Below are positions 5,093 to 24,073 of a DNA stretch of 32,000 nucleotides, piece after piece. The position numbers and the translations under genes were made by a program. The notes under the pieces were generated by a model. That model had not been told where the DNA came from and did not search any database. It saw only the letters and a program-made list of their open reading frames with translations. The stretch's first letter is position 1. Each line of letters starts with the position of its first letter. The stretch comes from Propionibacteriaceae bacterium (lineage in GTDB: Bacteria > Actinomycetota > Actinomycetes > Propionibacteriales > Propionibacteriaceae). Location: NCBI GenBank assembly GCA_031256725.1, contig JAIRQE010000019.1, forward strand, positions 90,001 through 122,000, written 5' to 3'.

Positions 5093-6621
5093 TGTGGATT
5101 CTCCTGTCCCTGTCTCAGAGCTAATGCCAGCGCTAGATGATCCCCACTGGGACGATCTGCTTCAAGTAGGTCAGCCACCGTCCACGCAACTTTGAGTACC
5201 TTGTCCACTCCACGCGCGGACAGACTCCCGTTGATCACAGCCGAATCGACCATCCCCATGCCTGTGGGCAATGGAAGTTCTTTGCGGACAAACCTCCCAG
5301 GCAATTCCGCATTCGTGGTCCATGTAGTATTTCGGAGACGATCCGACTGGCGAATCCTGGCGGCCTGTACACGCTCAGCAACTGTGAGAGAACTGTCAAC
5401 ATCCATGGACTGCTTATCAGCCAAGCATTGTCTGACTGGAAGAATCCGCGATTGGATATCAATACGATCCAGGATCGGCCCCGAGACTCGTGCCCCGTAT
5501 TTTCGGATCGCCATGGGTGTACACGTACACTTACTCCTCGGCGTTGACGCCAAGCCACATGGACAAGGATTCGCGGCTAAAACAAGTTGAAAACGGGCTG
5601 GATACTTCACTGAAAGTTCGCAACGCCCAAGGATGATCTCCCCCAGTTCCAAGGGAGTACGCATTGCCTCTAAGGCCTGAGTTGAGAATTCGGGGGCCTC
5701 ATCAAGGAAGAGAACTCCTCGATGGGCAAGGGAGACCGCACCAGGACGAGCAATCCGAGCTCCACCGCCTATGAGGGAAGCCAAGGACGCTGAATGGTGA
5801 GGGGCTGAGTAGGGAGGCCGTACTGGAAGAGAATCAATAGACAGATCCACTAGCGAATGGATGGCCGCAACCTCCATCGCCTCCCGAACACTCAAATCAG
5901 GAAGAATCGATGGAAGACATGAAGCCAAGAGAGTCTTTCCCACCCCTGGCGGACCATGGAAGTACAAATGATGTCGCCCAGCGGCAGCCACCTCCAAAGC
6001 GAATCGGGCTTCAGACAAACCCACAACATCCTTGAGATCAGGAGACGCCGAAACCTCGGATGGGCCCGGCACCTCCGCGATGGCATCCACCCCAGACTCC
6101 CCGTTAAGAACCTCAATGAGATCCTGGATATTCCTCACTCCATGAACGGTGAGACCTTCAACCAATCGAGCTTCATTCAACTGGGAAACGGGCACAACCG
6201 CACGTTCGATCCCCACACGTCTTACTCCCAACAAAGCCGGCAGCACTCCACGAACAGGATGAACCTTTCCATCCAGTCCCAGTTCCCCAAAGAGAACAAT
6301 CTCTTCCAAGACTGACGGGTGAATCACCCCTTCAGCCGCCAGTACTGCCGCAGCGATACCCAGGTCATAATGGGATCCCGCCTTCGGCAGACTCGCAGGA
6401 GTGAGGTTGATCGTCAGCACCTGAGGGGGCCAACTAAATCCCGCGCTCAATACTGCTGCCCGGCATCTCTCTTTAGCTTGGGTAAGAGCAGCATCAGGTA
6501 AGCCCACCATTGTCGTCCTTGGTAACCCCGATCCAGTCCATGCTTCAATGGTGACCACCATGGCTTCCATCCCCAGCAAGGCCACCGATTGGGACCTAGC
6601 TATCCCCCATACAGATGTCAT
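5089..6621 (-). CDS. YifB/ComM family Mg-chelatase-like AAA+ ATPase
   Basis: 510 aa with an N-terminal Lon-protease-like (ChlI N) region. Walker A is GPPGVGKT, Walker B is VLFLDEAPEF, and the ANPCPCG motif is present. There is an ATGA overlap with yraN at 6618-6621. Confidence 0.92.
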   Translation of the reverse strand: MTSVWGIARSQSVALLGMEAMVVTIEAWTGSGLPRTTMVGLPDAALTQAKERCRAAVLSAGFSWPPQVLTINLTPASLPKAGSHYDLGIAAAVLAAEGVIHPSVLEEIVLFGELGLDGKVHPVRGVLPALLGVRRVGIERAVVPVSQLNEARLVEGLTVHGVRNIQDLIEVLNGESGVDAIAEVPGPSEVSASPDLKDVVGLSEARFALEVAAAGRHHLYFHGPPGVGKTLLASCLPSILPDLSVREAMEVAAIHSLVDLSIDSLPVRPPYSAPHHSASLASLIGGGARIARPGAVSLAHRGVLFLDEAPEFSTQALEAMRTPLELGEIILGRCELSVKYPARFQLVLAANPCPCGLASTPRSKCTCTPMAIRKYGARVSGPILDRIDIQSRILPVRQCLADKQSMDVDSSLTVAERVQAARIRQSDRLRNTTWTTNAELPGRFVRKELPLPTGMGMVDSAVINGSLSARGVDKVLKVAWTVADLLEADRPSGDHLALALALRQGQENPQ

Positions 6622-6992
6622 AATCGTACCGCCCGCGCGTGAGTAATGGAGGCCTTCTTCCCTGGCTCAGCAAGGATCCCAATGGCATCAATCCTCACTC
6701 GGTCGTACCCCGCCTCATGGGTCACCATCCACATACATGCAAGGCGATGAAGACGTCGAAGCTTCTCGATTGTTATTGCCTCAAGTGGCTGCCCAAATCC
6801 CACCCCTGACTTGGCCTTGACTTCGCAAAACACAAGAGTACCCCGCGACGAGGTGGGATCGACAGCAATGATGTCGATCTCGCCAACTCGGCTATATCGC
6901 CAGTTTCTTTCCAAGATTTTCCACCCCAGATTTTCAAGGTACACAGTGGCCAGGTCTTCGCCCTTTTTTCCTATCGACCTACGCTTGTCCAT
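6618..6992 (-). CDS. yraN: YraN family (UPF0102) endonuclease-like protein
   Basis: 124 aa with GEDLA..YL...G..IL.RNWR, GEIDIIA and FCEVKA motifs of the YraN/UPF0102 family. It sits in the conserved position upstream of yifB-dprA. Confidence 0.88.
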   Translation of the reverse strand: MDKRRSIGKKGEDLATVYLENLGWKILERNWRYSRVGEIDIIAVDPTSSRGTLVFCEVKAKSGVGFGQPLEAITIEKLRRLHRLACMWMVTHEAGYDRVRIDAIGILAEPGKKASITHARAVRL

Positions 6993-7271
6993 ATTTCACC
7001 TCCACGTGAACCATGGGCGTACACAAGAAGAGGTTGTCATCTATCCAAAGGTCACGGGTACCTCAAAAAACTATCCACAGATTCACCGATTCTCAGCATT
7101 TCCTAGAATCAAGGACTGTTGCTTCTTGTTTTTGATTCTGGATCCTGCGACTTCACGCAGGATGACAGTGGATACCACAGGATGACAATGCCCGAACCCC
7201 ATCAGCCTGTACGGCACAGAATCCAGAACCGTCTGCGCGCAGTGCAGGCTTCATCGCAGAATCCAGAGTGT

Positions 7272-8283
7272 CTACCCCAATTCCCGGGATCTCATGAACA
7301 CATCCAAAGACTCTTTCAAGATCGCCCGAGCCATCGGCAAAGCCACAACAGGCAGAAGTACCAAAGCAGGAATGAAGGTTTGAGCGTAATCACCCGCAGT
7401 TAGTTCCGTGTTGATGTGGAACCAAACCTCCGAGATTCTCCAGGCAATGTAGTACGCCGTCGCAGCGCCAATAGGGATGGCCACAATCATCGCCAGGATT
7501 CCCAGAATCCAGGTCTCAGTCAGGATCGTCGCCACGACCACCCGATCCCTAAAACCCAGACTCCTCAACAACTGATAATCAGGAGCCCTCTTGGCAACGG
7601 TATACCCCAAGCAAGCCAACACGAATAGCAGGCCAACTCGGCGGCAAACGCGCACCCAACCATCCAGATAATCTCCCCGGATGGCGTTTCCGACCCGAGA
7701 CCCGTCGAATAGCATCCAAGGGGGTCATCCGACTTACCTGTACTGCTGCATAGATCGCAGCCCCACTGAACACAACTGCCACCGCAACCGCAGCCACCCA
7801 CACATAGAAAGCCGTAAGGTGGATTTCAGCGATAGGCAGCCCCACCGAATAGGCAAACTCAGTAATAAACAGCTGGGCTAGAAGGTACCCCAGCCCAATA
7901 CCCAAGCCCACAGACACCACAGCCAATCCCACGATGATCACCATGAATGCTCGCACCAGACTTCCTGCGGTGTACCCCAAGGTCATGAGTACACCCAAGG
8001 CCCATCGTTCCTTAGCCAACCATTGAGCCAAAAGAAAGAAGGTCACAAACACTGAAGACAGCCCAGTCACCCCAACGATCACTGGAACAACCGTTGCAAA
8101 CGCCGCCAGATTCTTCTCCAGGTACAAGGAGGAAAACTGTTCATCGGAGGCTAATGCATAGGCCTGACTCAGATGATGGTCACCAGCATAATCAAGGATC
8201 TCCTGGCGTACCTTGTCAAGGTCCTCGGCAGTGGAACGGATCAGAACAGAGTTGAACAGCCTACCCGGAGGATGCCCCAACAT
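7272..8283 (-). pseudogene. decayed FtsX-type ABC permease (N-terminally truncated and frameshifted, two ORF fragments 7579-8283 and 7272-7715)
   Basis: Two overlapping ORFs in different frames each carry FtsX-like TM2-TM4 sequence (...SRMTPLDAIRRV at the end of fragment 1; LRSLGFRDR.. plus TM helices in fragment 2). Fragment 1 begins inside what looks like an extracytoplasmic domain, with no TM1. Fragment 2 lacks its own TM1 and extracytoplasmic domain. Confidence 0.55.
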
Positions 8284-8455: not shown

Positions 8456-11400
8456 GTGCTTCATCTAGAGGATGTCCGAAAAACATATCGAACAGGAAGT
8501 TTCATTCAGCAAGCTCTTGACGGTGTCACCATGACCTTCCGCGACAATGAGTTTGTCGCGATTCTTGGCCCCTCAGGCTCTGGCAAAACCACCATGCTCA
8601 ATATCGTTGGTGGTTTGGATCACTGCGATTCTGGCAACCTGGTCATTGATCAGGTATCAACCAAGGAGTACACAGATCGCGACTGGGACACTTATCGCAA
8701 TAACCGTATCGGCTTCGTCTTCCAGAACTACAACCTCATCCCCCACCAAAGCGTTTTGGCGAATGTTGAACTGGCGCTAACCCTATCGGGAGTCTCCAAG
8801 GCTGAAAGGTCTGAGCGGGCCCGCCAGGCCCTTGAGCAAGTCGACCTCCTTGAACATATCCATAAACTCCCCAATCAGCTCTCAGGTGGTCAGATGCAGC
8901 GTGTGGCCATTGCACGCGCATTGATCAACGACCCCGAGATCCTTCTTGCCGATGAGCCCACTGGCGCCTTGGATTCCAAGACTGGCGTCCATGTTATGAA
9001 CCTTCTCCAGGGGATCGCCAAAGAGCGACTGGTGATCATGGTGACCCACAACCCTGAGTTAGCTGCTGAGTACGCCACACGTACGATCTCCCTGCGTGAC
9101 GGAAAGGTTGTCAACGATACCAATCCCTATAGACAACCCAAGAAGGGCCGTGATGCAAAGGAGGCCCACCGTACTGCGATGAGCTTCCTCACCGCCATCG
9201 CTTTAAGCTTCAAGAACCTGCTGACGAAGAAGGGCCGTACACTCATGACGAGTTTCGCAGGCTCTATCGGGATCACGGGAATCGCGGCCATCCTTGCTTT
9301 GACTAATGGGGTCAACGCCTATATCCGTGGGGTTGAGGAGAATACGCTCTCCTTGTACCCACTGTCGATCAGTACCCAGGGAATCGACCTGAGTTCGATG
9401 CTCTCCATGGGAAGCACTATCAGCCAGGGTGCCGCCGAGAAGGGCGATGCTGATCTCTACGAAGTCAAGATGATATCGAAGATGTTTGAGGAAGTCGGAT
9501 CCAATGATCTTGAGTCCCTCAAAACCTATCTCGACTCCCCAGAATCAGACATCGATTCCTATGTCAAAGCGATTCAGTACAACTACAACATCACTCCGCA
9601 GATTTTCTCCAAGGCTCAAGCCGATACTGTGAAACAAGTGAACCCCAACAACATGTTCTCCTCTTTGGGTTTCTCTGGGGACTCACCCTCATCAATGATG
9701 AGCATGGGAATGACCGCAAATGTTTTTTCCTCACTTCCTGATGATCTGAGCCTTCTTGAAGGGCAGTACGATATCCTCGCTGGCCATTGGCCAGAATCCA
9801 GCCATGAATGCATCCTGGTGGTGACTGAATCTGGTGGAATCTCTGACTTCGTTCTCTATGCTATGGGTCTGCGCGATCCAGCTGAACTCGACAAAATGAT
9901 CGAGGATATGGCGGAGAACAACCCCGTCACAGTACCCACAGATCGCAAGGTGTTCTCCTATGAGCATCTGTTGAAAGTCACCTTCTCTGTCGTCAACGCC
10001 GTCAACTTCTATGAGTACGACGAGACCTATGAGGTATGGGCAGATCGACGTAACGATGACGAGTGGATGAAGAAGGCAGTACAAAGTGGGGAGACTCTGA
10101 AGGTCGTGGGTATCGTAAGATTCAATCCCAATGCCACTGCTCAAATGCTACGCCCAGGTCTCTACTACCCCACCAGCTTGGTCTACCATCTCATGGATCA
10201 AGCAGGTGATTCGGCGATCGTGAATGAGCAGCTCGACTCCCCCGACGTGAATGTCTTTTCTGGCAAAACATTCGCCTATGAGGCTGAGAATCCCGCGATG
10301 GCTGACTTCGATTTCTCATCCATGTTGAATGTGGATCCCAATGCAATAACCGATATGTTCGCCATGGACTTCTCAGGTATGACGATGCCGAAAATGGACA
10401 ACCTCAGCAACCTTGGATCAACTATGGATATGTCATCAATGTCGGGGAAAATGCCCCCCATGGATCTCAGTGCCATCCTGTCCGACGTTGACATCAAGAT
10501 GGATCCTGATGCTCTTGAGGCCCTCATCACACAAACGATGACCGATTATCTCTCAGACACCCTTTTAGGTACCGCACCTCCGACCGCATCCCCAGGGATA
10601 CCACAGATACCCACAGAATTCTCCACGCAGATTCCTACGTCCCCCCCCACGAGTCTGCCGACATCCTGGCCTACTCTTCCCACTGAGGTACCTACGATAA
10701 ACCAAACTGAATCCGAATCACGTGGACCCGGATCAGAACCCTCTCCAGAAGCGGTGGCTTCTGTACCCTCGGAAACACCTGAGTCGCCAGCGGAAACCGC
10801 GATACAGCTACCAACTTCTATGCCCACTGAGTTTCCAACCTCCGTGCCCAGCGGAATACCCACAGGTCCTCCTACTGGAATGGTTCCAGATGAGAGTTTC
10901 GCAGAATGGTTCACTCAACCTGGCGTACAAGCGCAGTTCATGCAGCGCCTCGTGAACGTTATTAATACTGAGGAAATCAGTCAACAGGTATCTGCGAGCA
11001 TTGCTGAGTCTATGCAAGCGGCCATGCAGTCCATAGTGACTGACATGATGACTAGACTACAAAGTGAGTTAGCGTTAGCACTGAGGGCCACGATGACCCA
11101 GATGACCAACCAGATGTCTGATGCAATGAACTTTGACCCAGACACCATGTCAGAGATCTTCAAGTTCGACATGGACCCAGAAAAGCTGACTGGACTCATG
11201 ATGTCGATGATGAGTAATCAGTCCAACTCCCTAGATGCGAACCTCCGTCAACTGGGGTACGCCAATATGGATATCCCTTACTCTATTGATATCTATCCTT
11301 TAGATTTCGCATCCAAGGAGAAGGTCCTCACCATCCTTGACGGATACAACGATCATATGAACTCCCTTGGTAAGGAGGATCAGGTCATCACCTATACCGA

Positions 11401-11848
11401 CATTGTGGCTACGTTAATGACCTCAGTGACCGACATCATCGACAAGATCTCAACAATACTCGTTGTCTTCGTCTCCATCTCTTTGGTTGTGTCCTCAATC
11501 ATGATTGGTGTCATCACCTTCATCTCAGTCCTGGAAAGACGCAAAGAGATTGGCATCCTAAGAGCCCTTGGAGCATCCAAACGCGACATTGGTAATGTCT
11601 TCAATGCGGAGACTTTGATTGTTGGCTTCGTAGCTGGGTTGATGGGTGTACTCATCACCCTGCTCCTCACACTAATCGTTAATCCGATCTTTTACCTTTT
11701 CACAGATGTGTACAGAATCGCTCGACTGCCTCTCAATGCTGCACTGATTCTGATTGGTGTCTCAATGCTGCTGACCTTCCTCGCGGGTCTCATCCCCAGT
11801 TCAGCAGCCAGTCGTAAGGACCCTGTCGAAGCCCTCCGTAGCGAGTAG
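8456..11848 (+). CDS. MacB-type ABC transporter, fused ATP-binding domain plus single FtsX permease domain with a very large extracytoplasmic insert
   Basis: 1130 aa. GTG start at 8456 is preceded by GGGGAAGGGG. Walker A is GPSGSGKTT, signature is LSGGQMQRVAIARAL, Walker B is LLADEPTGALD. TM1 lies around aa 260-285. The C-terminal FtsX block has ERRKEIGILRALGASKRDI plus three TM helices and the terminal KDPVEALRSE. Confidence 0.9.
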   Translation: MLHLEDVRKTYRTGSFIQQALDGVTMTFRDNEFVAILGPSGSGKTTMLNIVGGLDHCDSGNLVIDQVSTKEYTDRDWDTYRNNRIGFVFQNYNLIPHQSVLANVELALTLSGVSKAERSERARQALEQVDLLEHIHKLPNQLSGGQMQRVAIARALINDPEILLADEPTGALDSKTGVHVMNLLQGIAKERLVIMVTHNPELAAEYATRTISLRDGKVVNDTNPYRQPKKGRDAKEAHRTAMSFLTAIALSFKNLLTKKGRTLMTSFAGSIGITGIAAILALTNGVNAYIRGVEENTLSLYPLSISTQGIDLSSMLSMGSTISQGAAEKGDADLYEVKMISKMFEEVGSNDLESLKTYLDSPESDIDSYVKAIQYNYNITPQIFSKAQADTVKQVNPNNMFSSLGFSGDSPSSMMSMGMTANVFSSLPDDLSLLEGQYDILAGHWPESSHECILVVTESGGISDFVLYAMGLRDPAELDKMIEDMAENNPVTVPTDRKVFSYEHLLKVTFSVVNAVNFYEYDETYEVWADRRNDDEWMKKAVQSGETLKVVGIVRFNPNATAQMLRPGLYYPTSLVYHLMDQAGDSAIVNEQLDSPDVNVFSGKTFAYEAENPAMADFDFSSMLNVDPNAITDMFAMDFSGMTMPKMDNLSNLGSTMDMSSMSGKMPPMDLSAILSDVDIKMDPDALEALITQTMTDYLSDTLLGTAPPTASPGIPQIPTEFSTQIPTSPPTSLPTSWPTLPTEVPTINQTESESRGPGSEPSPEAVASVPSETPESPAETAIQLPTSMPTEFPTSVPSGIPTGPPTGMVPDESFAEWFTQPGVQAQFMQRLVNVINTEEISQQVSASIAESMQAAMQSIVTDMMTRLQSELALALRATMTQMTNQMSDAMNFDPDTMSEIFKFDMDPEKLTGLMMSMMSNQSNSLDANLRQLGYANMDIPYSIDIYPLDFASKEKVLTILDGYNDHMNSLGKEDQVITYTDIVATLMTSVTDIIDKISTILVVFVSISLVVSSIMIGVITFISVLERRKEIGILRALGASKRDIGNVFNAETLIVGFVAGLMGVLITLLLTLIVNPIFYLFTDVYRIARLPLNAALILIGVSMLLTFLAGLIPSSAASRKDPVEALRSE
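10571..10890 (+). repeat. Pro/Thr/Ser-rich low-complexity linker inside the ABC fusion protein
   Basis: Translates to TAPPTASPGIPQIPTEFSTQIPTSPPTSLPTSWPTLPTEVPT...LPTSMPTEFPTSVPSGIPTGPPTG, with recurring (I/L/M)PT(E/S)(F) units. The mirror-image antisense ORF 10546-10914 is an artefact of this composition. Confidence 0.8.
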
Positions 11849-14271: not shown

Positions 14272-15492
14272 TCATCCAGTGATAAGAAGTATGACCAACA
14301 TGAGGTTCAGTACCACGATGGCACCCACAGCGAGCCACGAGATCACAGTGAGCATGGGTTTACTTGCATACTGACCGAGGAACCGACTGCTGGTGTACCT
14401 CACTAAAGGAATCAGAGCGAAAGGTATGCCGAAGCTCAAGACCACCTGACTTAAGACTAAAGCCCAGGTTGGATCGACCCCTATGGCAAGGATGATCAGA
14501 GCAGGTACGAGTGTGATAAGTCTCATGACTATTACTGGTACCTTTCTTTTCAGCAGATCCCTCATGATCGTGACTCCCGCGTAAGCGCCTACAGATGTTG
14601 AGGCCAAGCCTGAGGCAAGTAGACCGATGGCGAACAGTGCCCCCACCACTGGACCGAGATTGGTCTCGATGGCCCGATGTGCGCCCTGGATGGAATCAGT
14701 GCCAGGGACACCGGACAGTGCCGAGGCAGCCAGAACGAGCATGAGGATATTGACACCGCCTGCGAAGAAGAGGGAAACGAGTACCTCCCATCGTGTGGAG
14801 CGAAGAGTTGCTGGCATATCCATGGAGGCCCTGGGTCCATGACGATCCACGGCCAAAGAGGAGTGTGCATAGATCGCATGGGGCATCACTGTGGCTCCCA
14901 GCATTGAGGCAGCCAGAAGTACGGATTCACGTCCAGAAAAACTGGGGATCAGCCCTTGGGCTGCTTGCCCCCACTGTACTCCTGAGACGAAGACCCCAGC
15001 TAAAAACCCGATGGTGATGATCAGGAGCAAGCCGATGATGACACGTTCAAAGGAGCGTTGCCCGCGTTTGGATTGCCAGGCAAGCAGTCCGAAAGAGACC
15101 ACACCGACGATGATCCCTCCAAGGAGAAGGGGTACCCCAAAGAGGATCTCTAAGGCAATAGCCCCTCCAATAACTTCAGCCAAATCAGTCGTGATGGCCA
15201 CGATCTCAGCCTGGGCGAAATAGGCCAGTCGTGTGCTTCGACGGGTACGCTCCCCCAACAGTTTCGACAGACTCTTTCCAGTGACGAGGCCCAGTTTCGC
15301 GGAGAGGTACTGCACGAGCACCGCGATGGTATTTGCAAGAACGAGGACCCAGATGAGCTTGTACCCAAAGCGCGCCCCTGAGGTCAGATTGGCAGCCACA
15401 TTCCCCGGATCCACATATGCAACCGAGGCCACGAATGCTGGCCCCCATAGCCATGCAAGACTGCGGATCCTAGTGGGAGATTTCTGCGCCAT
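14272..15492 (-). CDS. mntH: Nramp-family divalent metal (Mn2+/Fe2+) transporter MntH
   Basis: Contains the YVDPGNVAANL (DPGN) and MPHAIYAHS motifs and many TM segments. The ORF track starts at a TTG (15528); the first ATG is at 15492 (MAQKSPTRIRS...). The start is not resolved. Confidence 0.9.
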   Translation of the reverse strand: MAQKSPTRIRSLAWLWGPAFVASVAYVDPGNVAANLTSGARFGYKLIWVLVLANTIAVLVQYLSAKLGLVTGKSLSKLLGERTRRSTRLAYFAQAEIVAITTDLAEVIGGAIALEILFGVPLLLGGIIVGVVSFGLLAWQSKRGQRSFERVIIGLLLIITIGFLAGVFVSGVQWGQAAQGLIPSFSGRESVLLAASMLGATVMPHAIYAHSSLAVDRHGPRASMDMPATLRSTRWEVLVSLFFAGGVNILMLVLAASALSGVPGTDSIQGAHRAIETNLGPVVGALFAIGLLASGLASTSVGAYAGVTIMRDLLKRKVPVIVMRLITLVPALIILAIGVDPTWALVLSQVVLSFGIPFALIPLVRYTSSRFLGQYASKPMLTVISWLAVGAIVVLNLMLVILLITG

Positions 15493-15596
15493 ATTCTTAG
15501 TCTGTCGTATCCAGTTTTGGTGTGGCAACTAAGTTCCGAGATACACGACTCTAAAATTATTGGCTCTCACCCTGCACATTACTGGTCTCGGTGTAG

Positions 15597-15619: not shown

Positions 15620-15687
15620 ACTCTCCGAAATAATCATGGTGATTTATGTTAACATCAGTAATAGTGCGACCAAAGGAGGGATCAGCG

Positions 15688-15957
15688 ATGATTCGCATTG
15701 CCATGGATGTTCTTGAGGGTTTGGCTTCTAACTTGAAGACCATGACTTCGGTGTTGGATGCGGCAGTAGATGGTCCTGCCACAGGTACAGCAACTGGTCA
15801 TGACGGTGTTGATGCTCAGATGGGGGATTTCATACGAGTGTGGCAATCTAGCCGCGAAACAAACATGGATGGCATCAATACCTTGGGTGCGCTCATGACA
15901 TGCACTGTTGAGGGGTTCCGTGATCTAGACGAGCATTATCTCGCAACTCAAAGTTAG
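15688..15957 (+). CDS. small helical WXG100/EspC-like protein (candidate T7SS-type helper or co-substrate)
   Basis: 89 aa from the ATG at 15688, with AAAGGAGGG SD 7 nt upstream (ORF track starts at 15646). The pattern is helix - Gly/Thr/Ala-rich turn (GPATGTATGHDG) - helix, with F..VW in the second helix, as in WXG100-like proteins. There is no canonical WXG. Confidence 0.45.
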   Translation: MIRIAMDVLEGLASNLKTMTSVLDAAVDGPATGTATGHDGVDAQMGDFIRVWQSSRETNMDGINTLGALMTCTVEGFRDLDEHYLATQS

Positions 15958-15963
15958 GGGTTC

Positions 15964-17382
15964 ATGGTGAGAGATATGGAATTTCGCCCGTTGTTAGGCG
16001 ACGTGAACTATCTTCGGAATCGGTATAACACTTACGTGGGATGTGCCATGGACATGACCCGTACGGCCGATAGTGTCGTATTAGCTGTGAGTCAGGATCA
16101 TTCAGGACAAGGATTAGCTGCTGACGCGATTCGAGAACTAGCCACAAATGTTCACACGTCGATTACCATCTCAGGATTGGCCTATCGTGAAGTGGGTCGT
16201 GCCTTAGGTGACTATGCATATGGGTTGGAACAGGCCCAGATAATCGCTGATAGAGCATCGCGCACACTTGGAATACTCACCACTGAACTTCGCCACCTGG
16301 TCACAGTACAATCTCAGAAAGAAAATGCCTACAACGAGGCAAAACGATGGCGAACCTACTACCAGAACCATCCCAATCAGCCTGAGAAGCTCGTGTACTG
16401 GACCCGTGAAACCAAACAACGCTACACCTCATGGATGACCGCACAGGATGCTGTCGCCAGACACAAGAAACTCATCACAGCCCAAGAAGAAGCATGGCGG
16501 GAAGGCAAACAACGCAAGGATGCTGCTGCACGCATAGCAATGGAACGCATCAGCCAAGCAACCCACATGCTCTACAAAAACCAGCAAAGATTCACAACAA
16601 CCGGTCTCACTGCATGGCTGGGAGGATCACCCCTGTTCATTGACCTTGATTGGGAAAAACTGGCCGATTTCTTTGAAAGTCAGTATGAAGCCTTTCTGGA
16701 GTGGTGGGAATACGTATTGTCATCGGTGGCTTATGAGGTCGGTATTGCCGCATACAAATCTTGGATGGTTTATTCCCGCACCAGACAGTCAATTGACATG
16801 ATTCGTTGGTTCGTGATAACTGGGCCCTACATGCAAATCATGAAGAGGGTTTTCACTAGTGAAGAGAAACTTAGACGCATCTCCCGAGAGATTAAAAGGA
16901 TAATGGTTGGACGTCTCCTTCCTTTCGCAACCCTGCCCGTTGAAGTGGCACGCAGGGCCTATACAGGACCTATCGCAACTCTGATGTTACGCAGTGGGTT
17001 GATCGGAAAAATCTCCACTGCCGCCGGGAAAGTTATCCCGGTTGGCAGTGGAGCCCTAGCCATAACCGACGGAGTGTCTCGATTCGTTGACCCTCGTTAC
17101 TCTGGGACCCGCGGTGTTGTGGACCAAGTCATGGGTGGAGTTGAGGTCCTTGGAGGCCTCGGACTGGTTGCCCTTCCTTTCATACCAAATGCGTATGTGG
17201 CGATTGGTACAGCTGTCGCGTTGGGGATTGTGGGTGTGTGGGATTTAAGCAACATCGCCTATGACTGGCTAGAGGAACATCCCGAAGAAGTTATGACCGC
17301 GAGTGTGAAAACCATTCAAGTAACTGTGACTACAGTTCGGACTGTGCGTTTAGCCTGGGAAGTATTCAAAAAAAACCGTTAA
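15964..17382 (+). CDS. candidate T7SS-type (LXG / T7SS-signal-like) effector with glycine-zipper membrane C-terminal domain
   Basis: 472 aa. The N-terminal ~200 aa is helical, with ...RPLLGDVNYLRNR..., a degenerate WxG-like SGQGLAADAI and ALGDYAYGLEQAQIIADRA. This resembles the N-terminal secretion domain of actinobacterial polymorphic toxins. The C-terminus carries hydrophobic Gly-rich helices (MGGVEVLGGLGLVALPFIPNAYVAIGTAVALGIVGVW). It starts 7 nt after the previous gene's stop. Confidence 0.45.
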   Translation: MVRDMEFRPLLGDVNYLRNRYNTYVGCAMDMTRTADSVVLAVSQDHSGQGLAADAIRELATNVHTSITISGLAYREVGRALGDYAYGLEQAQIIADRASRTLGILTTELRHLVTVQSQKENAYNEAKRWRTYYQNHPNQPEKLVYWTRETKQRYTSWMTAQDAVARHKKLITAQEEAWREGKQRKDAAARIAMERISQATHMLYKNQQRFTTTGLTAWLGGSPLFIDLDWEKLADFFESQYEAFLEWWEYVLSSVAYEVGIAAYKSWMVYSRTRQSIDMIRWFVITGPYMQIMKRVFTSEEKLRRISREIKRIMVGRLLPFATLPVEVARRAYTGPIATLMLRSGLIGKISTAAGKVIPVGSGALAITDGVSRFVDPRYSGTRGVVDQVMGGVEVLGGLGLVALPFIPNAYVAIGTAVALGIVGVWDLSNIAYDWLEEHPEEVMTASVKTIQVTVTTVRTVRLAWEVFKKNR

Positions 17383-17415
17383 CCACAACTAGACCACGTA
17401 AAGAATGGAGGAGCG

Positions 17416-18228
17416 ATGAAAAATCGACCTAGTGAAACCCATGTGTTGACGCGAGCCAAACCCGGGGAATTAGTGTTACTCGGAATGCTCACCGATGAAC
17501 AGATCCTGGCTGTCGAAGGACTGGAACTTGCTCAACCGACTGTGCTTCCCTGGCATGAAACCCAACCCGATCCTGAAACCAGGATAGTCACCGCAGCACG
17601 GGCTTTGTTTGCAGCAGGTTTGTTCATTCCTGGAAGTGGCAAAGATGACTCACGTATCAGTGCAGACATGACTGGAATACTGTCTTCTAGGCGTGCCTCA
17701 CCAGTCCTTCTCATTATCGAACGTGAAACTTCAGAATCCCGACGTTGGAGTTATTCCTATCTGTTCAACACTGCTGTCCTAGAGGAACAAGTCAGCGCCG
17801 ATGGATTCCACACTTTCGTTGCACTGTCTACCAGTGATCTTGGAGACCATTTGGTGGGTCTACTTGACCCATTTGATACCGCTGGGAACACTGCCGAGTT
17901 AGGACGATTCACTTCCATCGACGACTTCGACAAAGACAAAGCAAGCTTCCCCATTGTTACTGAAGCAATCGCGGTGTCCACCATGACCCTACTCGACGCC
18001 CAAATCGGGCAAGCAACAACGATCATAGTATTTGCATCCGGAACTGGCGTCGCGATTCTAGAAACCCAGCAAACACCAGACGATGCAAATCAAACCTATG
18101 TGCTTCGTTGTGTATCACGCAAGGACTTGATCGAACTGACCTACCACCTCATCGCAGACTCCCAACTCCCAGACATCCAGACAGGAAATGAAACTGCGCC
18201 CCTCAACGATCCACCCAAGGTGATATAA
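17416..18228 (+). CDS. EspG-like protein (candidate T7SS substrate chaperone)
   Basis: 270 aa, acidic and soluble-looking. GGAGGAG SD lies 5 nt upstream. Length and pattern (LTDEQILAVEGLELAQPTVLPW..., AARALFAAGLF, PVLLIIERE..., GDHLVGLLDP) resemble the EspG family. The assignment is by eye only. Confidence 0.4.
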   Translation: MKNRPSETHVLTRAKPGELVLLGMLTDEQILAVEGLELAQPTVLPWHETQPDPETRIVTAARALFAAGLFIPGSGKDDSRISADMTGILSSRRASPVLLIIERETSESRRWSYSYLFNTAVLEEQVSADGFHTFVALSTSDLGDHLVGLLDPFDTAGNTAELGRFTSIDDFDKDKASFPIVTEAIAVSTMTLLDAQIGQATTIIVFASGTGVAILETQQTPDDANQTYVLRCVSRKDLIELTYHLIADSQLPDIQTGNETAPLNDPPKVI

Positions 18229-19130
18229 TGGGAACCAAAATCGGGACACGACCAACCCGGAAAATGATGAAAATCATCAACGATAACCCCTGGCTCGGCT
18301 CCGTCCTACACGTCGAACCATTCCGCCCCCTAAAACTCTTCGTCACTGGGGCAATCCTCCTGCTCATCGGGCCGTTTCTTTTCCTGGGCACACGGATTAC
18401 CCCGGAATACTGGCTGCTTCTCGAAGCCCTATTCTGGCCGGTGCCACTTATCTTAGCTGGATCACTATACAGATGTCGGCTCGTCATCTGCGAAGGAGGA
18501 GTCCTCATCGGCCCATCAACAATAACGTCAACGGTTGATATGATTCCTTATGATATGGTTTTTTTAATGTCACTAACAGCCGTACAGAACTTCTCACGCT
18601 TCCGACACATGGGAATCGACTGGGGAGAAAATGGGTCCGAACGATGGGGGAAATGGGGAATCGTATTCCGGAGTAGGGTGGGTGTTGTCTGGCTATCAAA
18701 AGAGTCGTTTGGGAAAGACAACCCAGACATCACCGGGGCCAAAACAAAAACCTTCCGTCAACACTGCCAAGACTTCCTAAAATGGAAAAAATACGTTGTG
18801 TATGAGGATGTGGGATATGACATCCCACTCAGTCTGACCGTTTTCGGGACCCGACACCACCCATCCGAAGTGATCACCCACATCCTCCGCGCTGCAGCAG
18901 ACCATGGAGGATGCCCCTGGGCCTTCAGTGTCCCCGCCGCCACAGAAACCCCTGTCACACTCCCACGACGCCAAAAAAAATTCCGACAAGCACTCCCACG
19001 AATCTTCGGCGACATGACACCCCCCACCATCCCACTAAGCGGATTCCAACCAACACACGAACCCCCCACAGAAAACGACCAGTCAAGTCACAACAACAAC
19101 CAACTAGTGCAACCATGGTACCTAGAATAA
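18228..19130 (+). CDS. membrane protein, two N-terminal TM helices plus bacterial PH-like (YdbS/DUF304-like) domain, Pro/Thr-rich tail; candidate immunity protein
   Basis: 300 aa. Its ATG overlaps the upstream TAA by 1 nt (ATAATGG). TM helices are LKLFVTGAILLLIGPFLFLG and YWLLLEALFWPVPLILAGSLY, followed by RLVICEGGVLIGP, which is typical of membrane-anchored bPH domains. An alternative start lies at 18261. Confidence 0.45.
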   Translation: MGTKIGTRPTRKMMKIINDNPWLGSVLHVEPFRPLKLFVTGAILLLIGPFLFLGTRITPEYWLLLEALFWPVPLILAGSLYRCRLVICEGGVLIGPSTITSTVDMIPYDMVFLMSLTAVQNFSRFRHMGIDWGENGSERWGKWGIVFRSRVGVVWLSKESFGKDNPDITGAKTKTFRQHCQDFLKWKKYVVYEDVGYDIPLSLTVFGTRHHPSEVITHILRAAADHGGCPWAFSVPAATETPVTLPRRQKKFRQALPRIFGDMTPPTIPLSGFQPTHEPPTENDQSSHNNNQLVQPWYLE

Positions 19131-19383: not shown

Positions 19384-20364
19384 TCACTTGGATGGGTCAT
19401 CACCGCCCCACAGGGGAGTTGGGTAGGTACCCTCATCATGCATGGATTGGACTGCTTTTTGTACCTCGGGTTTGTCTGAGGCATAGGTGACTCCGTACCA
19501 CCTATTCCTGGCACTCAAAACTGTGACGTCAGCCAATCCGGCATGCATGAATCTTTCGACTAGATCGGGGAGGCCGTACTCACATGTCAGGGGATTTGAT
19601 GGCAGATGTTCGGTCAGGAAGATAGCGAATCCTTCTTGGGCTCGGCTGAGGAATTCTGGGGTTGCTCCCCAAAGATTCATGGACACTGGGGTGCCCAGTG
19701 GAAGCTCAATCCAGGATTGTTCATCGACTGTGTACCGGGCCCCCGTCTCAGTCGGTTCCAATCCATGACACTCCTCAATTCCCACAAGGAAGCCTTGCGC
19801 GTTGACCGTACACACTCCCCGAGAGACTGAACCATGATCGGAGAGGGTGTCTTCGATACGGAATCCCACCATGGCGAGGTGGAGGCGCGCATTGTCATCC
19901 TGCGCACTGCGACTTCGCGCATCACAGGCCCCATCGCAGGATCCAGGAGCTCTAGCGAGAAACTCAGCCAAGGACTCTAAAGCCTCAAACCCATAGAAAT
20001 CATCAGCATTGATTACTGCGAAGGGGCGATCCACTACTTCGGCAGCCGATAAGAGAGCATGGGCTGTCCCCCAGGGTTTAACTCGACCTTCGGGAACCTC
20101 AAACCCACTAGGGAGGTTACCCAAACTCTGATAGGCATAACGTAGGGGCACATGGCTGGCCAACCGGTCCCCGAATGCCGCGCGGAATTGGGGTTCGGTT
20201 TCTGGGTTGATCACCATGACAACGTCGTTGAACCCAGCTCGTACCGCATCGAAGATGGAATACTCGAGAATGACTTCCCCACAGGGGCCCATGGAATCAA
20301 TCTGTTTGAGTCCCCCATAGCGGCTGCCCATTCCAGCAGCCAGAATCACCAGTGTCGGTTTCAT
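19384..20364 (-). CDS. sugar-phosphate nucleotidyltransferase family protein (NTP_transferase fold)
   Basis: 326 aa. The N-terminal LVILAAGMGSRYGGLKQI matches the GxGxRxxxxK signature of nucleotidyl-sugar pyrophosphorylases. Substrate cannot be determined from sequence alone. Confidence 0.75.
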   Translation of the reverse strand: MKPTLVILAAGMGSRYGGLKQIDSMGPCGEVILEYSIFDAVRAGFNDVVMVINPETEPQFRAAFGDRLASHVPLRYAYQSLGNLPSGFEVPEGRVKPWGTAHALLSAAEVVDRPFAVINADDFYGFEALESLAEFLARAPGSCDGACDARSRSAQDDNARLHLAMVGFRIEDTLSDHGSVSRGVCTVNAQGFLVGIEECHGLEPTETGARYTVDEQSWIELPLGTPVSMNLWGATPEFLSRAQEGFAIFLTEHLPSNPLTCEYGLPDLVERFMHAGLADVTVLSARNRWYGVTYASDKPEVQKAVQSMHDEGTYPTPLWGGDDPSK

Positions 20365-20592: not shown

Positions 20593-21360
20593 TTATGCGG
20601 TCTTGCCGTCTCCCCTGAAGAGGGAGGCGATGAGATCGCGGTTGAGTTGGCCAATGGACTCCAAGGGGATCTCCTTGGGGCACACTGAGGCACACTCACC
20701 GATGTTCTGACACCCACCGAAACCATTGGCATCATGGGCTGCGATCATAGCCTTCACACGCAAGCGGCGTTCAGGCTGACCTTGGGGAAGATTCGCCAGG
20801 TGAGTAATCTTCGCAGAGGTGAACAACATCCCGGAACCATTGGGGCAGGCTGCCACGCAAGCACCGCAACCAATACAGGTCGCCACGTCGAAGGCTCGAT
20901 CTGCCTGCCTCTTCGGGGCTGGAGTCGAGTGGGCTTCGGGGGCAGACCCAGTGTTTACCGAGATGAATCCACCGGCCTGGATGATCCGATCGAATGCCGA
21001 GCGATCAACAACGAGGTCCTTGATCACTGGGAAGGCACCCGTCCTCCATGGCTCCACTTCGATGACATCACCATCAGAGAAGCTACGCATATGTAGCTGG
21101 CAGGTGGTCGTCGCAACCGAGGACTCGTAACGCCCATGCGGTGAACCGTTGATCACGATGCCGCACATACCGCAGATACCTTCACGGCAGTCGTAGTCGA
21201 AGGCGACAGGCTCCTCATTCTTGGCTGTCAACTGCTCATTGAGCATGTCGAGCATCTCCAAGAAGCTCGTGTCCTCGGAGACATCATCAAGCTGATAGGT
21301 CACCATGGACCCAGCTGCATCCTTATTGGCTTGGCGCCAAACCTTGAGTGTGATTTTCAC
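20593..21360 (-). CDS. sdhB: succinate dehydrogenase / fumarate reductase iron-sulfur subunit
   Basis: 255 aa with three Cys clusters: [22 protein letters not shown] and [12 protein letters not shown]. Its start overlaps the sdhA stop (21357-21360). Confidence 0.93.
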
Positions 21361-23366
21361 TTGTAACTCCGTTGCTTCAACTCGATGGCCTCGTAGACCA
21401 GAGGTTCCTTATGAAGGACAGGCTTCTGCCCGTCACCTGTGAACTCCCAGGCAGCGACATAAGCGAATTCCTCATCATGACGCAGGGCCTCACCGTCTTC
21501 GGTTTGGGATTCACTGCGGAAGTGCCCACCACAGGATTCATGCCTATGAAGAGCATCGATACACATCAACTCACCGAGATCGATGAAGTCCGCAACCCGA
21601 CCAGCACGTTCGAGAGCCTGATTGAAGTCCTCATTCACTCCAGTGACGCGTACATTGGTCCAATACTCGTCACGCAGGGCGCGAATCTTTTCAATGGCGA
21701 TCTTGAGACCTTCTTCATCACGATCCATCCCGCAGTATTCCCACATGATGGCACCTAGTTCACGGTGGAAGGAATCAACCGAACGATCACCTTGAATGGA
21801 CAACAGTTTCTCGATGCGGTCCTTGGCTTCACGAAGAGCCTCAACTGATGCTGGGGTTGAATCGTCGATAGCCTCGAAAGGACCAGCAGCCAGATAGTCA
21901 TTGATCGTATTCGGCAATACAAAGTACCCATCAGAGAGCCCCTGCATCAAAGCCGAAGCGCCAAGACGGTTGGCACCATGATCAGAGAAGTTGGCCTCAC
22001 CGGTGACAAATAACCCAGTCACAGTGGACTGAAGGTCATAATCAACCCAAAGTCCGCCCATGACATAGTGGACAGCCGGATAGATACGCATGGGAGTCTC
22101 GTAAGGATTCTCACCTGTGATCTGAGCGTACATATCGAAGAGGTTGCCGTAACGAGCAGACACTTCCTTCTTCCCCAGACGCGCAATCGCATCAGCAAAG
22201 TCGAGGTACACCCCACGACGACGCTCAATAGTCTCGCCAGTCTCATGATCAGTCTCTGTGATCGCCGGGCCAACACCGCGACCTTCGTCGCACATGTACT
22301 TGGCTTGACGAGACGCAATATCGCGAGGTACGAGGTTACCGAAAGAGGGATAGATCCTCTCCAGATAATAATCGCGTTCATCCTCTGGAATATCGCGAGG
22401 ATCCTTCTCAGCATCCTCAGGGTTCTTAGGTACCCAAATGCGACCGTCGTTACGCAGGGACTCCGACATCAGCGTCAGTTTGGACTGATGTTCCCCTGTT
22501 ACAGGGATACAGGTCGGATGGATCTGTGTATAGCAGGGGTTACCGAAGTACGCACCCTTACGGTGTGCTCTCCAGTTTGCCGTCACATTGGATCCCATGG
22601 CATTCGTTGAAAGGAAGAAGACGTTGCCATAGCCACCAGTAGCGAGGACCACCGCATCGGCGTACCAAGCCTCGACCTCACCTGTCACCAGGTCGCGGGT
22701 CACGATACCGCGAGCGCGACCATCATGGATGATCACCTCCAACATCTCGTGACGGGAGTGCATGGTGACCGTACCTGCGGCAACCTGACGCTCCAGAGCC
22801 TGATAGGCCCCAATCAGGAGTTGCTGGCCTGTTTGACCGCGGGCATAGAAGGTTCGCTGTACCTGTACCCCACCGAAGGAGCGAGTGTCGAGCAGACCGC
22901 CGTACTCGCGGGCGAAGGGAACCCCCTGGGCCACGCACTGATCGATGATCCCAGCGGAGACCTCAGCCAGACGGTAGACATTGGTTTCACGGGCGCGGTA
23001 GTCGCCACCCTTGACCGTGTCATAGAACAACCTGAAAACCGAGTCGTTGTCGTTACGGTAATTCTTGGCTGCGTTGATACCGCCCTGAGCCGCAATGGAG
23101 TGCGCGCGCCGCGGGCTGTCCTGGAAACAGAAGTTGTGGACGTTGTACCCAGCCTCGCCAAGGGTTGCACCCGCAGCGGCACCGGCTAGGCCCGTACCCA
23201 CAATGATGACGGTCAGCTTGCGGCGGTTCGCCGGGTTGACCAACTTGGCTTCAAACTTGCGCGTCGACCACTTCTTTTCGATGGGGCCAGCTGGAGCCTT
23301 CGTATCACGAATCTCTTCGCCAACCGTGAAGTACGCTTTCGCGGAGGACTTAACTGTCGCTGCCAT
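21357..23366 (-). CDS. sdhA: succinate dehydrogenase / fumarate reductase flavoprotein subunit
   Basis: FAD-binding [13 protein letters not shown], the covalent-FAD His motif [11 protein letters not shown], and HYVMGGL are present. I use the ATG at 23366 (MAATVKSS...), 2 nt after the sdhC stop. The 71-codon upstream extension in the ORF track overlaps sdhC and is rejected. Confidence 0.93.
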
Positions 23367-23368
23367 AG

Positions 23369-24073
23369 TTAGCTCACCATCCCAATTAGTACGGCCACTG
23401 GAGGAAGAATAAAGCCTACAAACAGCAATGCTGCCACGAAATAGGCCAGGGCGTTGAGTACATTGCGTGCCCCGGTGCCAACGTTGGCACCCAAGGTAGT
23501 GAAGGCTGACCAGAAGCCATGCCTCACATGCATACACACTGCGCCAACAAAGATCGCATAGATGAGCACAACCCACCACTGCGAGAAGGCTCCAACAAAC
23601 ATAGAGTACGGGTCTTCAGCGTTAAAGGTATACCCTGTAGTGACCCAACCCACTGTGAACATGAGCAGGTGCAGGAGAAGCAGAGTACCCACAAGGATAC
23701 CCAGCCAACGCATGAACCGAGCCGACAAGGTTTGTTCCTTGCGACGGGTACGTACGTAGCGAGCCCCGCGTCCATGCAGGCTTGCCGCCCACAGAACTGC
23801 CATGCAGTAGATATGTAGTACCAAGCAGGTCAACAGGACGAGCCTGAAGATCCATATGAACCACCCCTGGGGAAGAATGGGGTAGAGGAGATCACCCTTG
23901 AGCCAATGCGCGTAATGGTTGTACTCGGATTGGCCAATGAAGATCTTGAGATTGCCAAACATATGCATGAGAAGGAAAGCGATCAGCACAAGGCCAGTCA
24001 AGGCCATGACGACCTTTTTAACCACCGTGGAACGTATCGCTTCCTGATGCACACTCAAAGATGTAGATGCCAC
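23369..24073 (-). CDS. sdhC: succinate dehydrogenase / fumarate reductase cytochrome b membrane subunit (single large subunit type)
   Basis: 234 aa with about five hydrophobic helices and conserved His residues ([33 protein letters not shown]). It sits first in the sdhCAB order. Confidence 0.85.

Follow-up and report, generated by a model that had tools for sequence, protein, structure and literature searches.

The closest described analogues of the locus studied here are effector loci that belong to type VII secretion systems (T7SS). This locus is a cassette of four packed genes in a 32-kb stretch of DNA (the window, by which we mean the whole analysed stretch) from a termite gut metagenome-assembled genome (MAG) of the Propionibacteriaceae. 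The four genes encode a candidate small partner protein (P1), a candidate modular effector (P2), a soluble protein with a predicted EspG fold (P3) and a membrane protein (P4). In Staphylococcus aureus ST398, the EsxX locus of a T7SSb has the order LapX3/LapX4, EsxX, ExiAB and ExiCD (Alcock et al. 2025, PMC12744356). LapX3 bears an FxxxD motif, ExiAB is a soluble pair that sequesters the glycine-zipper helix of EsxX and strictly co-occurs with the toxin, and ExiCD are membrane proteins that guard against external toxin and are also found as orphan genes (PMC12744356). The cassette shares with this locus a small partner that bears FxxxD at its C-terminal end; an effector in which a helical secretion domain at the N-terminus is joined to a C-terminal domain that is hydrophobic and rich in glycine and that in EsxX is a membrane toxin; a soluble protein that strictly co-occurs with the toxin, cytoplasmic binding of a hydrophobic motif being known for ExiAB; and a membrane protein, the candidate immunity factor, of which extra or orphan copies exist. 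However, none of the four proteins shows sequence similarity to its counterpart. The cassette has one partner gene, compared to two in the EsxX locus, a single predicted EspG-fold chain instead of a DUF5085 heterodimer, and one membrane protein with two transmembrane segments instead of two proteins with six. Its C-terminal domain, unlike that of EsxX, lacks a canonical glycine zipper, and it resides in an actinobacterium whose relatives carry a system of the FHA-EssC/kinase type rather than a T7SSb.

The predicted fold of P3 matches mycobacterial EspG proteins (PDB 4l4w, 4w4j, 6uuj, 5vba and 4w4l) over the full length, with TM-scores of 0.60-0.65. Similarly to P3, EspG and EsaE are cytosolic, acidic proteins of about 270 amino acids (aa) that are encoded beside a T7SS substrate and are presumed to shield a hydrophobic surface before export. 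The identity between P3 and EspG is 8-14%, and there are no PE/PPE proteins here. Moreover, the site bound by EspG is the tip of the PE-PPE bundle at the N-terminus, whereas P3 is tied by co-occurrence to a C-terminal cargo domain. EsaE (DUF5081), the chaperone of EsaD, is thought to bind a helical N-terminus (PMC12478183) and was predicted to adopt the EspG fold; EspG-like proteins were reported only at T7SSh and T7SSi loci of Bacillota (PMC11217815).

The Eat loci (Tap-toxin-immunity) are ESX-4-dependent weapons that were reported across Actinomycetota (Benedict et al. 2026, PMC13444075). These loci and, in Bacillota, the LXG-Lap1-Lap2 loci (Klein et al. 2022, 2024) resemble the cassette in combining, in this order, one or more small helical partners, a toxin with an elongated helical N-domain and variable C-terminal domains, and an immunity gene. 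The partner and the N-domain form a composite signal that contains an FxxxD or YxxxD/E motif, and the FxxxD motif of Lap1 (F77/D81 in LapD1) is needed for export of the LXG toxin (PMC9600955). In contrast to these loci, the cassette has only one partner gene, whose product does not belong to DUF3130, DUF3958 or any TIGR family by hidden Markov model (HMM) comparison, and an additional gene for an EspG-fold protein. Its putative toxin domain forms an undescribed hydrophobic family and not an enzyme such as GH183. Finally, T7SSd and T7SSe (Garrett, Higginson and Palmer 2024, PMC11217815) comprise a Ser/Thr kinase and an EssC-like ATPase that contains FHA. The secretion loci of the cassette's relatives resemble these FHA/kinase-type systems: the loci L009, L011, L015 and L019 lie beside genes for a ~1500-aa FHA and FtsK/SpoIIIE ATPase and for WXG100 proteins, and L009 has genes for an FHA protein and a Ser/Thr kinase at its side as well. 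In the retrieved flanks of the relatives, neither TsdH nor TsdI was identified.

We propose, with a probability of about 0.62, that the cassette encodes a T7SS effector module that targets membranes, together with a partner, an EspG-fold chaperone and a membrane immunity protein.

The candidate effector and its small partner

P2 was searched exhaustively with HMMER against 1.84 billion representative proteins, and the matches fell into two non-overlapping sets of proteins. Residues 4-200 matched 12 proteins of 123-842 aa (P0007, P0009, P0015, P0016, P0019-P0023 and P0025-P0027; E values of 5e-12 to 1e-3), whose C-termini are unrelated to that of P2 and carry, for example, an HEFGH zincin-like motif or other hydrophobic domains. 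Residues 328-470 matched nine proteins of 323-466 aa (P0008, P0010-P0014, P0017, P0018 and P0024; E values of 1.5e-10 to 2.6e-4). In proteins other than P2, the C-domain follows a clear WXG100 domain in some cases (e.g., with HWEGSD in L001), a weakly LXG-like domain in P0008 and a T7SS_signal domain in P0013 and P0017. Both the secretion domain and the C-terminal domain thus occur in swapped combinations, and such an exchange of domains in both directions is the mark of polymorphic toxins. Over its full length, P2 is homologous to the 461-aa toxin of L011, a locus in another Propionibacteriaceae MAG (E value of 2e-15). A word-indexed homolog search returned P2 alone, and a search of PDB sequences yielded chance matches only.

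Five of the N-domain relatives, namely, P0015, P0021, P0023, P0026 and P0027, align with the P2 N-domain at E values of 2.6e-5 to 9.8e-4 and themselves match PF21725 (T7SS_signal) at E values of 6.6e-8 to 2.1e-4. With 33.2 and 27.5 bits, P0021 and P0026, respectively, lie above the gathering score of this model, which is 27. P2 itself did not match PF21725 at an E value of ≤1, nor did it match PF04740 (LXG) in Pfam; the N-domain of the related toxin P0008 gave a weak PF04740 match (E value of 0.004). The resemblance to T7SS-signal and LXG domains noted in a preliminary description of this DNA was thus recovered for T7SS_signal by way of the family relatives, but not as a direct match to either model. 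Sequence comparison supports the assignment of the P2 N-domain to a family whose members match T7SS_signal. An AlphaFold2 model computed from a 21-sequence alignment is consistent with this assignment: it predicts helices at residues 14-43, 51-134 and 140-218 (pLDDT of 80 to 98) that form an elongated three-helix rod, and it has low confidence beyond residue ~210, including the middle region.

The L-x-G-D motif lies at residues 10-13 of P2, and in the family alignment (A6) L10 never varies, while conservation of G12 and of D13 is at least 90%. The length of P2 differs among public gene calls (468 aa at NCBI, 444 aa at JGI and 472 aa in Logan). Since the N-termini of the homologs, which read M-x-D-x-x-F/Y-x-x-L-x-G-D, align there, a start at position 15964 or 15967 is favoured; the shorter NCBI and JGI calls therefore cut off conserved N-terminal residues. 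The N-domain alignment was too variable to be used for scans of sequence collections, as was the 12-sequence alignment of the C-domain.

The hydrophobic, Gly/Ala-rich C-domain family has the signature DG..(N/D)P.Y.G.RG..D...GG......G...GPVG....G.W.LGN...D, in which DG...Y.G.RG..D...G forms the invariant core, with nine invariant columns of Gly, Arg, Asp or Asn (three Asp, one Arg and one Asn). P2 keeps all nine of these residues, and its hydrophobic stretch spans residues 384-432. Judged by sequence, the C-domain would represent an undescribed hydrophobic family and a candidate toxin domain for which no curated model exists. A strict glycine-zipper label was rejected for the C-domain of P2, since it contains no GxxxG motif. 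We also observed that most C-domain proteins (P0010-P0014, P0017, P0018 and P0024 and the toxins of L009-L015) share ...G(D)F(V)GGLF(G/S) as their C-terminal end. This conserved tail, which is found neither in P2 nor in P0008, could be an additional secretion or sorting signal.

P1 was linked to this toxin family through the genes located 5' of other toxins. A profile built from the four small genes that precede the T7SS_signal-type toxins of L011, L019, L020 and L021, with P1 left out, was searched against 2043 open reading frames (ORFs), among which P1 was the sole additional match (E value of 1.7e-8). BLASTP aligned P1 with the L011 partner at an E value of 5e-6. In all five T7SS_signal-type loci (the cassette and these four), the partner gene lies immediately upstream of the toxin gene or overlaps its start. 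F77 and D81 of the FxxxD motif near the C-terminus are invariant in six of six aligned small partner proteins. These data support the assignment of P1, by sequence, to a family of small partners of the Lap1/Tap kind with an invariant FxxxD motif. The 88-aa partner of L006 showed no similarity to P1 by BLASTP, though both carry FxxxD.

The WXG100 design that had been suggested for P1 was not borne out. An hhalign comparison of the P1 family with eight WXG100 domains gave a probability of 0.4%, and neither a PF06013 match nor a W-x-G motif was found, so that P1 was rejected as a WXG100 protein. P1 likewise had no Pfam or NCBIfam match that would indicate membership in DUF3130/TIGR04197. The partner of L020 gave subthreshold matches to WXG100 (E value of 1.6e-3) and DUF6317 (E value of 1.7e-4).

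The predicted EspG-fold protein and the membrane protein

An AlphaFold2 model of P3, computed from a five-sequence alignment, had a pLDDT of 80.6 and a pTM of 0.77. When this model was compared with the PDB using Foldseek, the top 15 matches were all EspG1, EspG3 or EspG5 structures (E values of 9e-9 to 3e-5; TM-scores of 0.47-0.64). The alignments spanned ~199-305 columns, with the TM-score of up to 0.64 reached over ~269, and the first match outside EspG had an E value of 8.5e-3 and a TM-score of 0.15. The fold predicted for P3 is thus that of EspG, with no other fold among its structural relatives. At the sequence level, we found no link between P3 and EspG or EsaE: 12 members of the P3 family had no match in Pfam (including PF14011 and DUF5081) at an E value of ≤10, and PDB sequence searches with P3 or the 12-member profile found no EspG chain. 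The acidic, EspG-like character that had been attributed to P3 therefore holds for its charge (isoelectric point [pI] of 4.5) and its predicted fold, but the resemblance in sequence was not confirmed by any profile. A word-indexed search yielded four metagenomic homologs of P3 and a metagenome scan yielded one further short contig (L017). A genome scan with P3 peptide patterns returned no relative, the patterns being too strict.

Gene neighbourhoods were then compared in 11 independent loci (the cassette, L001, L003, L006 and L009-L015), which were obtained from the contigs of P3 homologs and from genome scans with the C-domain alignment, with HMM searches over all ORFs. A P3 homolog adjoins the C-domain gene in all 11 loci, whichever type of N-domain the toxin carries (HMM E values of 1e-41 to 1e-125). 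No P3 homolog was present in any of the three loci whose toxin has the N-domain only (L019-L021), and these also had no P4 or C-domain homolog; in each of them, a gene of 95-110 aa overlaps the toxin start. Thus, P3 and the membrane gene track the toxin domain, and the P1 family tracks the N-domain. Because the occurrence of P3 goes with that of the toxin domain rather than the secretion domain, P3 more likely handles the hydrophobic cargo than serves as an N-domain chaperone of the PE/PPE type.

L019 and L020 contain homologous genes for soluble proteins of ~200 aa without a Pfam match, located 3' of the N-domain toxins (L019, 6521-8542; L020, 2618-3920). The toxins of these loci carry a different hydrophobic C-domain, the ~200-aa gene is duplicated in L020, and in L019 it is followed by a gene for a polytopic membrane protein. 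These soluble and membrane genes may be a parallel protection pair for another toxin family.

The two transmembrane segments that had been noted in P4 were recovered in a Kyte-Doolittle scan, and they keep their position across the P4 homologs (alignment A1). P4 homologs accompany the pair of toxin and EspG-like genes in L001, L003, L006, L011, L013 and L014. In L009, L010, L012 and L015, the P4 slot is occupied by an unrelated, conserved protein of 72-78 aa, also with two transmembrane segments, whose gene overlaps the EspG-like gene at its stop codon. A membrane gene of this two-segment kind is thus found with the C-domain toxin and the P3 homolog in 11 of 11 loci. The PH domain that had been suggested for P4 gained no support from HMMs: P4 and three homologs had no match to bPH_2 (PF03703) or to any other Pfam family at an E value of ≤1, and P4 had no match among PDB sequences; a word-indexed search with the P4 profile found two proteins. 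In L003, the full-length copy is followed in tandem by a 113-aa truncated paralog of P4 (2176-2517), which shares with it the N-terminal motif, the two transmembrane segments and the LVVCDGGIIIG strand and then ends. This tandem copy resembles the orphan or decaying copies that are seen in immunity gene arrays.

Secretion loci of the relatives, proposed mechanism and alternative readings

In L011, a gene for a 1511-aa ATPase with FHA and FtsK_SpoIIIE domains is divergently adjacent to a cassette of all four families, in the order partner, toxin, P4 homolog and P3 homolog. The four families thus occur together beside an FHA-EssC-type ATPase. In Antribacter (L009, assigned with Pfam), an operon-like run comprises genes for an FHA protein, a Ser/Thr kinase, a 232-aa protein, a 1493-aa FHA-EssC-like ATPase, a WXG100 protein, a toxin with WXG100 and C-domains, an EspG-like protein and a small protein with two transmembrane segments. 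The genes of L015 (Promicromonospora) agree with this run in size and order; L015 was assigned from this agreement, from the ORFs that match the WXG100 profile and from the upstream gene that reads as WXG100, the Pfam analysis of these two loci having covered L009. In L019, genes for an EssC-like ATPase and a WXG100 protein lie ~2.5 kb upstream of the N-domain toxin.

Additional features were observed in these loci. A second cluster of the WXG100 type lies 6 kb from the triad of toxin, EspG-like and membrane genes in L010 (16114-18083, minus strand), with ORFs of 96 aa and 141 aa and a 391-aa WXG100 fusion, and suggests that a single locus holds several T7SS substrates. In L003, the toxin triad is located just 5' of a flagellar export operon (fliP, fliQ, fliR and flhB; 3667-7307), and an 82-aa gene and a ParE-toxin gene sit between fliP and fliQ. 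A gene for a pyridine-nucleotide-disulphide oxidoreductase of ~470 aa recurs beside T7SS or toxin loci in different genera (Table 1); it was identified with Pfam in L009 and L019 and by matching N-terminal sequences in L010, L012 and L015.

From sequence, predicted fold and gene neighbourhoods, we infer the following steps for the proposed effector module. P1 would bind the rod of the P2 N-domain, which with its LxG-D motif would be the secretion handle, and would supply the FxxxD export signal to an ATPase of the EssC/EccC type. In the producer cytoplasm, P3 would keep the hydrophobic helices of P2 soluble and harmless, as both a chaperone and a cytoplasmic neutraliser; this putative role is modelled on that of ExiAB for EsxX and of EspG for the PPE tip. 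Once exported, the C-domain of P2 would most likely insert into the membrane of a neighbouring cell and damage it, and P4, or the small protein in its place, would shield the membrane of the producer and its kin from toxin arriving from outside. The orphan cassette would be served by a T7SS encoded elsewhere in the genome. The effector/chaperone/immunity logic of a T7SS cassette, which had been recognised in the preliminary description, is supported.

Several observations weigh against this proposal. As had been pointed out before, the window contains no T7SS machinery gene (Pfam scans of the 32 kb), and none of the four proteins looks canonical: P1 to P4 had no direct significant match in Pfam or NCBIfam, so that no curated T7SS model was hit. 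No WXG100-like ORF was found in the window with the WXG100 profile. Foldseek searches with the P2 model returned generic helical matches of the F-BAR/BAR kind only, none with an E value of ≤1e-3, and the EspG assignment of P3 derives from an AlphaFold2 model of a five-sequence alignment. P4 proper is present in seven of the 11 loci (the cassette and six others). The C-domain of P2 contains 12% Gly and no GxxxG motif, compared to 14-24% Gly and two to nine such motifs in its relatives, which makes it the least glycine-rich of its family. Finally, the triad of WXG100-C-domain, EspG-like and two-segment membrane genes is kept in the core T7SS locus across several genera of the Promicromonosporaceae; this conservation makes it possible that the triad is a housekeeping substrate and not a variable weapon.

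This last point leads to the alternative that survives best, which we nevertheless regard as rather unlikely: the cassette would encode a T7SS substrate module that is not an antibacterial toxin but a conserved secreted or membrane-inserting factor. The C-domain protein would then form part of the envelope or of a pore, or be a membrane-anchored co-substrate like EsxB; P3 would serve as the chaperone for its export, and P4 or the small membrane protein would be a membrane partner and not an immunity protein. Consistent with such a role, the triad directly follows a canonical WXG100 gene and an EssC-like ATPase gene in Antribacter, Promicromonospora, Myceligenerans and Cellulosimicrobium, and C-domain proteins and P3 homologs each show similarity from genus to genus, as would be expected of a core component. 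The nine invariant columns also suggest a specific conserved function, and the C-domain of P2 lacks a canonical glycine zipper. However, the C-domain is shuffled among three kinds of secretion domain and occurs here in a stand-alone cassette away from a T7SS locus, which is a hallmark of polymorphic toxins. Moreover, the truncated P4 paralog in tandem is reminiscent of an immunity array, and the nearest architectures that have been studied experimentally are toxins (PMC12744356, PMC13444075).

The strict co-occurrence of P3 with the toxin domain would also fit a second alternative, in which P3 is solely the cognate cytoplasmic immunity protein, with no role as a chaperone or in export, and P4 is unrelated or accessory. 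We consider this improbable. P3 is acidic and soluble, like many immunity proteins, P4 can be replaced by an unrelated small membrane protein, and the soluble ExiB alone neutralises cytoplasmic EsxX (PMC12744356). On the other hand, the only structural relatives of the P3 model are T7SS chaperones of the EspG family, and the third slot is always taken by a membrane protein. Polytopic membrane immunity proteins counter channel-forming effectors in almost all cases (PMC12744356), and the chaperone and immunity roles are compatible with each other.

Although the absence of machinery from the 32 kb, the lack of direct curated-model matches and the low glycine content of the C-domain could be read as signs of a decaying remnant in a genome without a T7SS, or of four unrelated orphans with a fortuitous likeness to such a module, this is very improbable given four intact, tightly coupled ORFs with a good ribosome-binding site, the retention of every invariant family residue, the occurrence of the same four families together beside a T7SS ATPase elsewhere, and the fact that it is usual for T7SS toxin cassettes to be orphans at a distance from the machinery (PMC13444075).

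Genomic context and significance of the cassette

The coordinates of the cassette and of its features are given in Table 1. All four genes are deposited as genes for hypothetical proteins (MDR0489040-43, LBG99_06560-06575). Coordinates and Pfam assignments agreed with the description of four packed plus-strand genes between minus-strand genes for an Nramp/MntH protein on the left (14272-15528) and a nucleotidyltransferase (NTP_transferase) on the right (19384-20364). The P2-P3 spacer of 33 nucleotides (nt) and the 1-nt overlap of the P3 and P4 genes (TGATG) were as described, but the P1-P2 spacer, given previously as 7 nt, measured 6 nt. The other Pfam-assignable genes of the window have housekeeping or transport functions.

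Table 1. Positions of the cassette genes, their features and the recurrent oxidoreductase gene (in the window, or in the contig of the locus named)
Feature	Sequence	Position	Strand	Description
Shine-Dalgarno-like AAGGAGG	window	15673..15679	+	8 nt upstream of the P1 start codon; read from sequence
Gene 1 (P1)	window	15688-15957	+	89 aa, pI 4.3; candidate Lap1/Tap-like small partner/targeting factor
FxxxD motif of P1 (F77-R-D-L-D81)	window	15916..15930	+	invariant in six aligned partners
Gene 2 (P2)	window	15964-17382	+	472 aa; candidate modular T7SS effector
P2 N-domain, residues ~1-215	window	15964..16608	+	elongated three-helix T7SS_signal-type secretion domain (predicted), L10-L-G12-D13 motif
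P2 C-domain, residues ~331-445	window	16954..17298	+	Gly/small-residue-rich, hydrophobic; candidate membrane-active toxin domain
Gene 3 (P3)	window	17416-18228	+	270 aa, pI 4.5; soluble, predicted EspG fold
Gene 4 (P4)	window	18228-19130	+	300 aa, pI 9.3; membrane protein with two transmembrane segments and a cytoplasmic domain, candidate immunity protein
Two predicted P4 transmembrane segments, residues 34-58 and 62-82	window	18327..18473	+	Kyte-Doolittle scan
Oxidoreductase gene	L009	13113-14516
Oxidoreductase gene	L010	11610-13052
Oxidoreductase gene	L012	2224-3624
Oxidoreductase gene	L015	11582-13033
Oxidoreductase gene	L019	3184-4593

The lower GC content that had been reported for the cassette was real but smaller than the earlier hand counts implied: it amounted to 50.4%, compared to 53.4% in the remainder of the window, and values as low occur in 4.7% of equal-sized windows. 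The GC content at third codon positions (GC3) of the P1-P3 genes is 0.47-0.50, values that are equalled by dprA and rnhB. The GC content thus hints only weakly at a foreign origin. No direct repeats flanking the cassette were found in the window, nor were an integrase or a tRNA found near it (Pfam scans included), and with a GC deficit of only 3 points an origin from a mobile element was rejected. Consensus scans for promoters and terminators found fewer sites than in shuffled controls.

Two other places in the window deserve mention. On the minus strand, an FtsX permease domain is found in both of two overlapping ORFs (7272-7715 and 7579-8283), suggesting that a permease gene has been frameshifted or split; adjoining them on the plus strand is an unusually long, 1130-aa fusion of an ATP-binding cassette (ABC) ATPase and an FtsX permease (8456-11848). 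In the sdhA ORF (21357-24073, minus strand), which as listed has 740 aa and begins with GTG, a long extension at the N-terminus overlaps a 234-aa ORF without a Pfam match (23369-24073). The true sdhA start is probably internal, and the 234-aa ORF may encode the membrane-anchor subunit.

The module as a whole is of a known kind; what is new here is an EspG-fold protein, as predicted, that follows the toxin domain instead of the secretion domain. We tentatively suggest, at somewhat less than even odds, that P3 represents a new EspG-fold family of Propionibacteriales and Micrococcales which recognises hydrophobic cargo and not the secretion bundle and acts as a joint chaperone and antidote, and that its cargo represents a new family of membrane toxins. 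If this is true, a single chain would join roles that are split between EspG/EsaE and ExiAB, and the EspG fold would reach beyond PE/PPE export in mycobacteria. There would also be a widespread actinobacterial family of membrane toxins that are carried on WXG100, LXG-like or T7SS_signal handles and exported via FHA-EssC-type systems.

The cassette adds four families without a curated model, namely, an FxxxD partner, a T7SS_signal-type effector, a predicted EspG-fold protein and a membrane protein, and ties them to FHA-EssC-type secretion loci in Propionibacteriaceae and Promicromonosporaceae. Experimental proof of T7SS antibacterial toxins in Actinomycetota came only in 2026, and knowledge beyond the Mycobacteriales is scant. 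The split in co-occurrence yields a testable prediction on the target of an EspG-fold chaperone, a question shared with EsaE of S. aureus, and Cellulosimicrobium and Promicromonospora offer culturable hosts in which it may be addressed.

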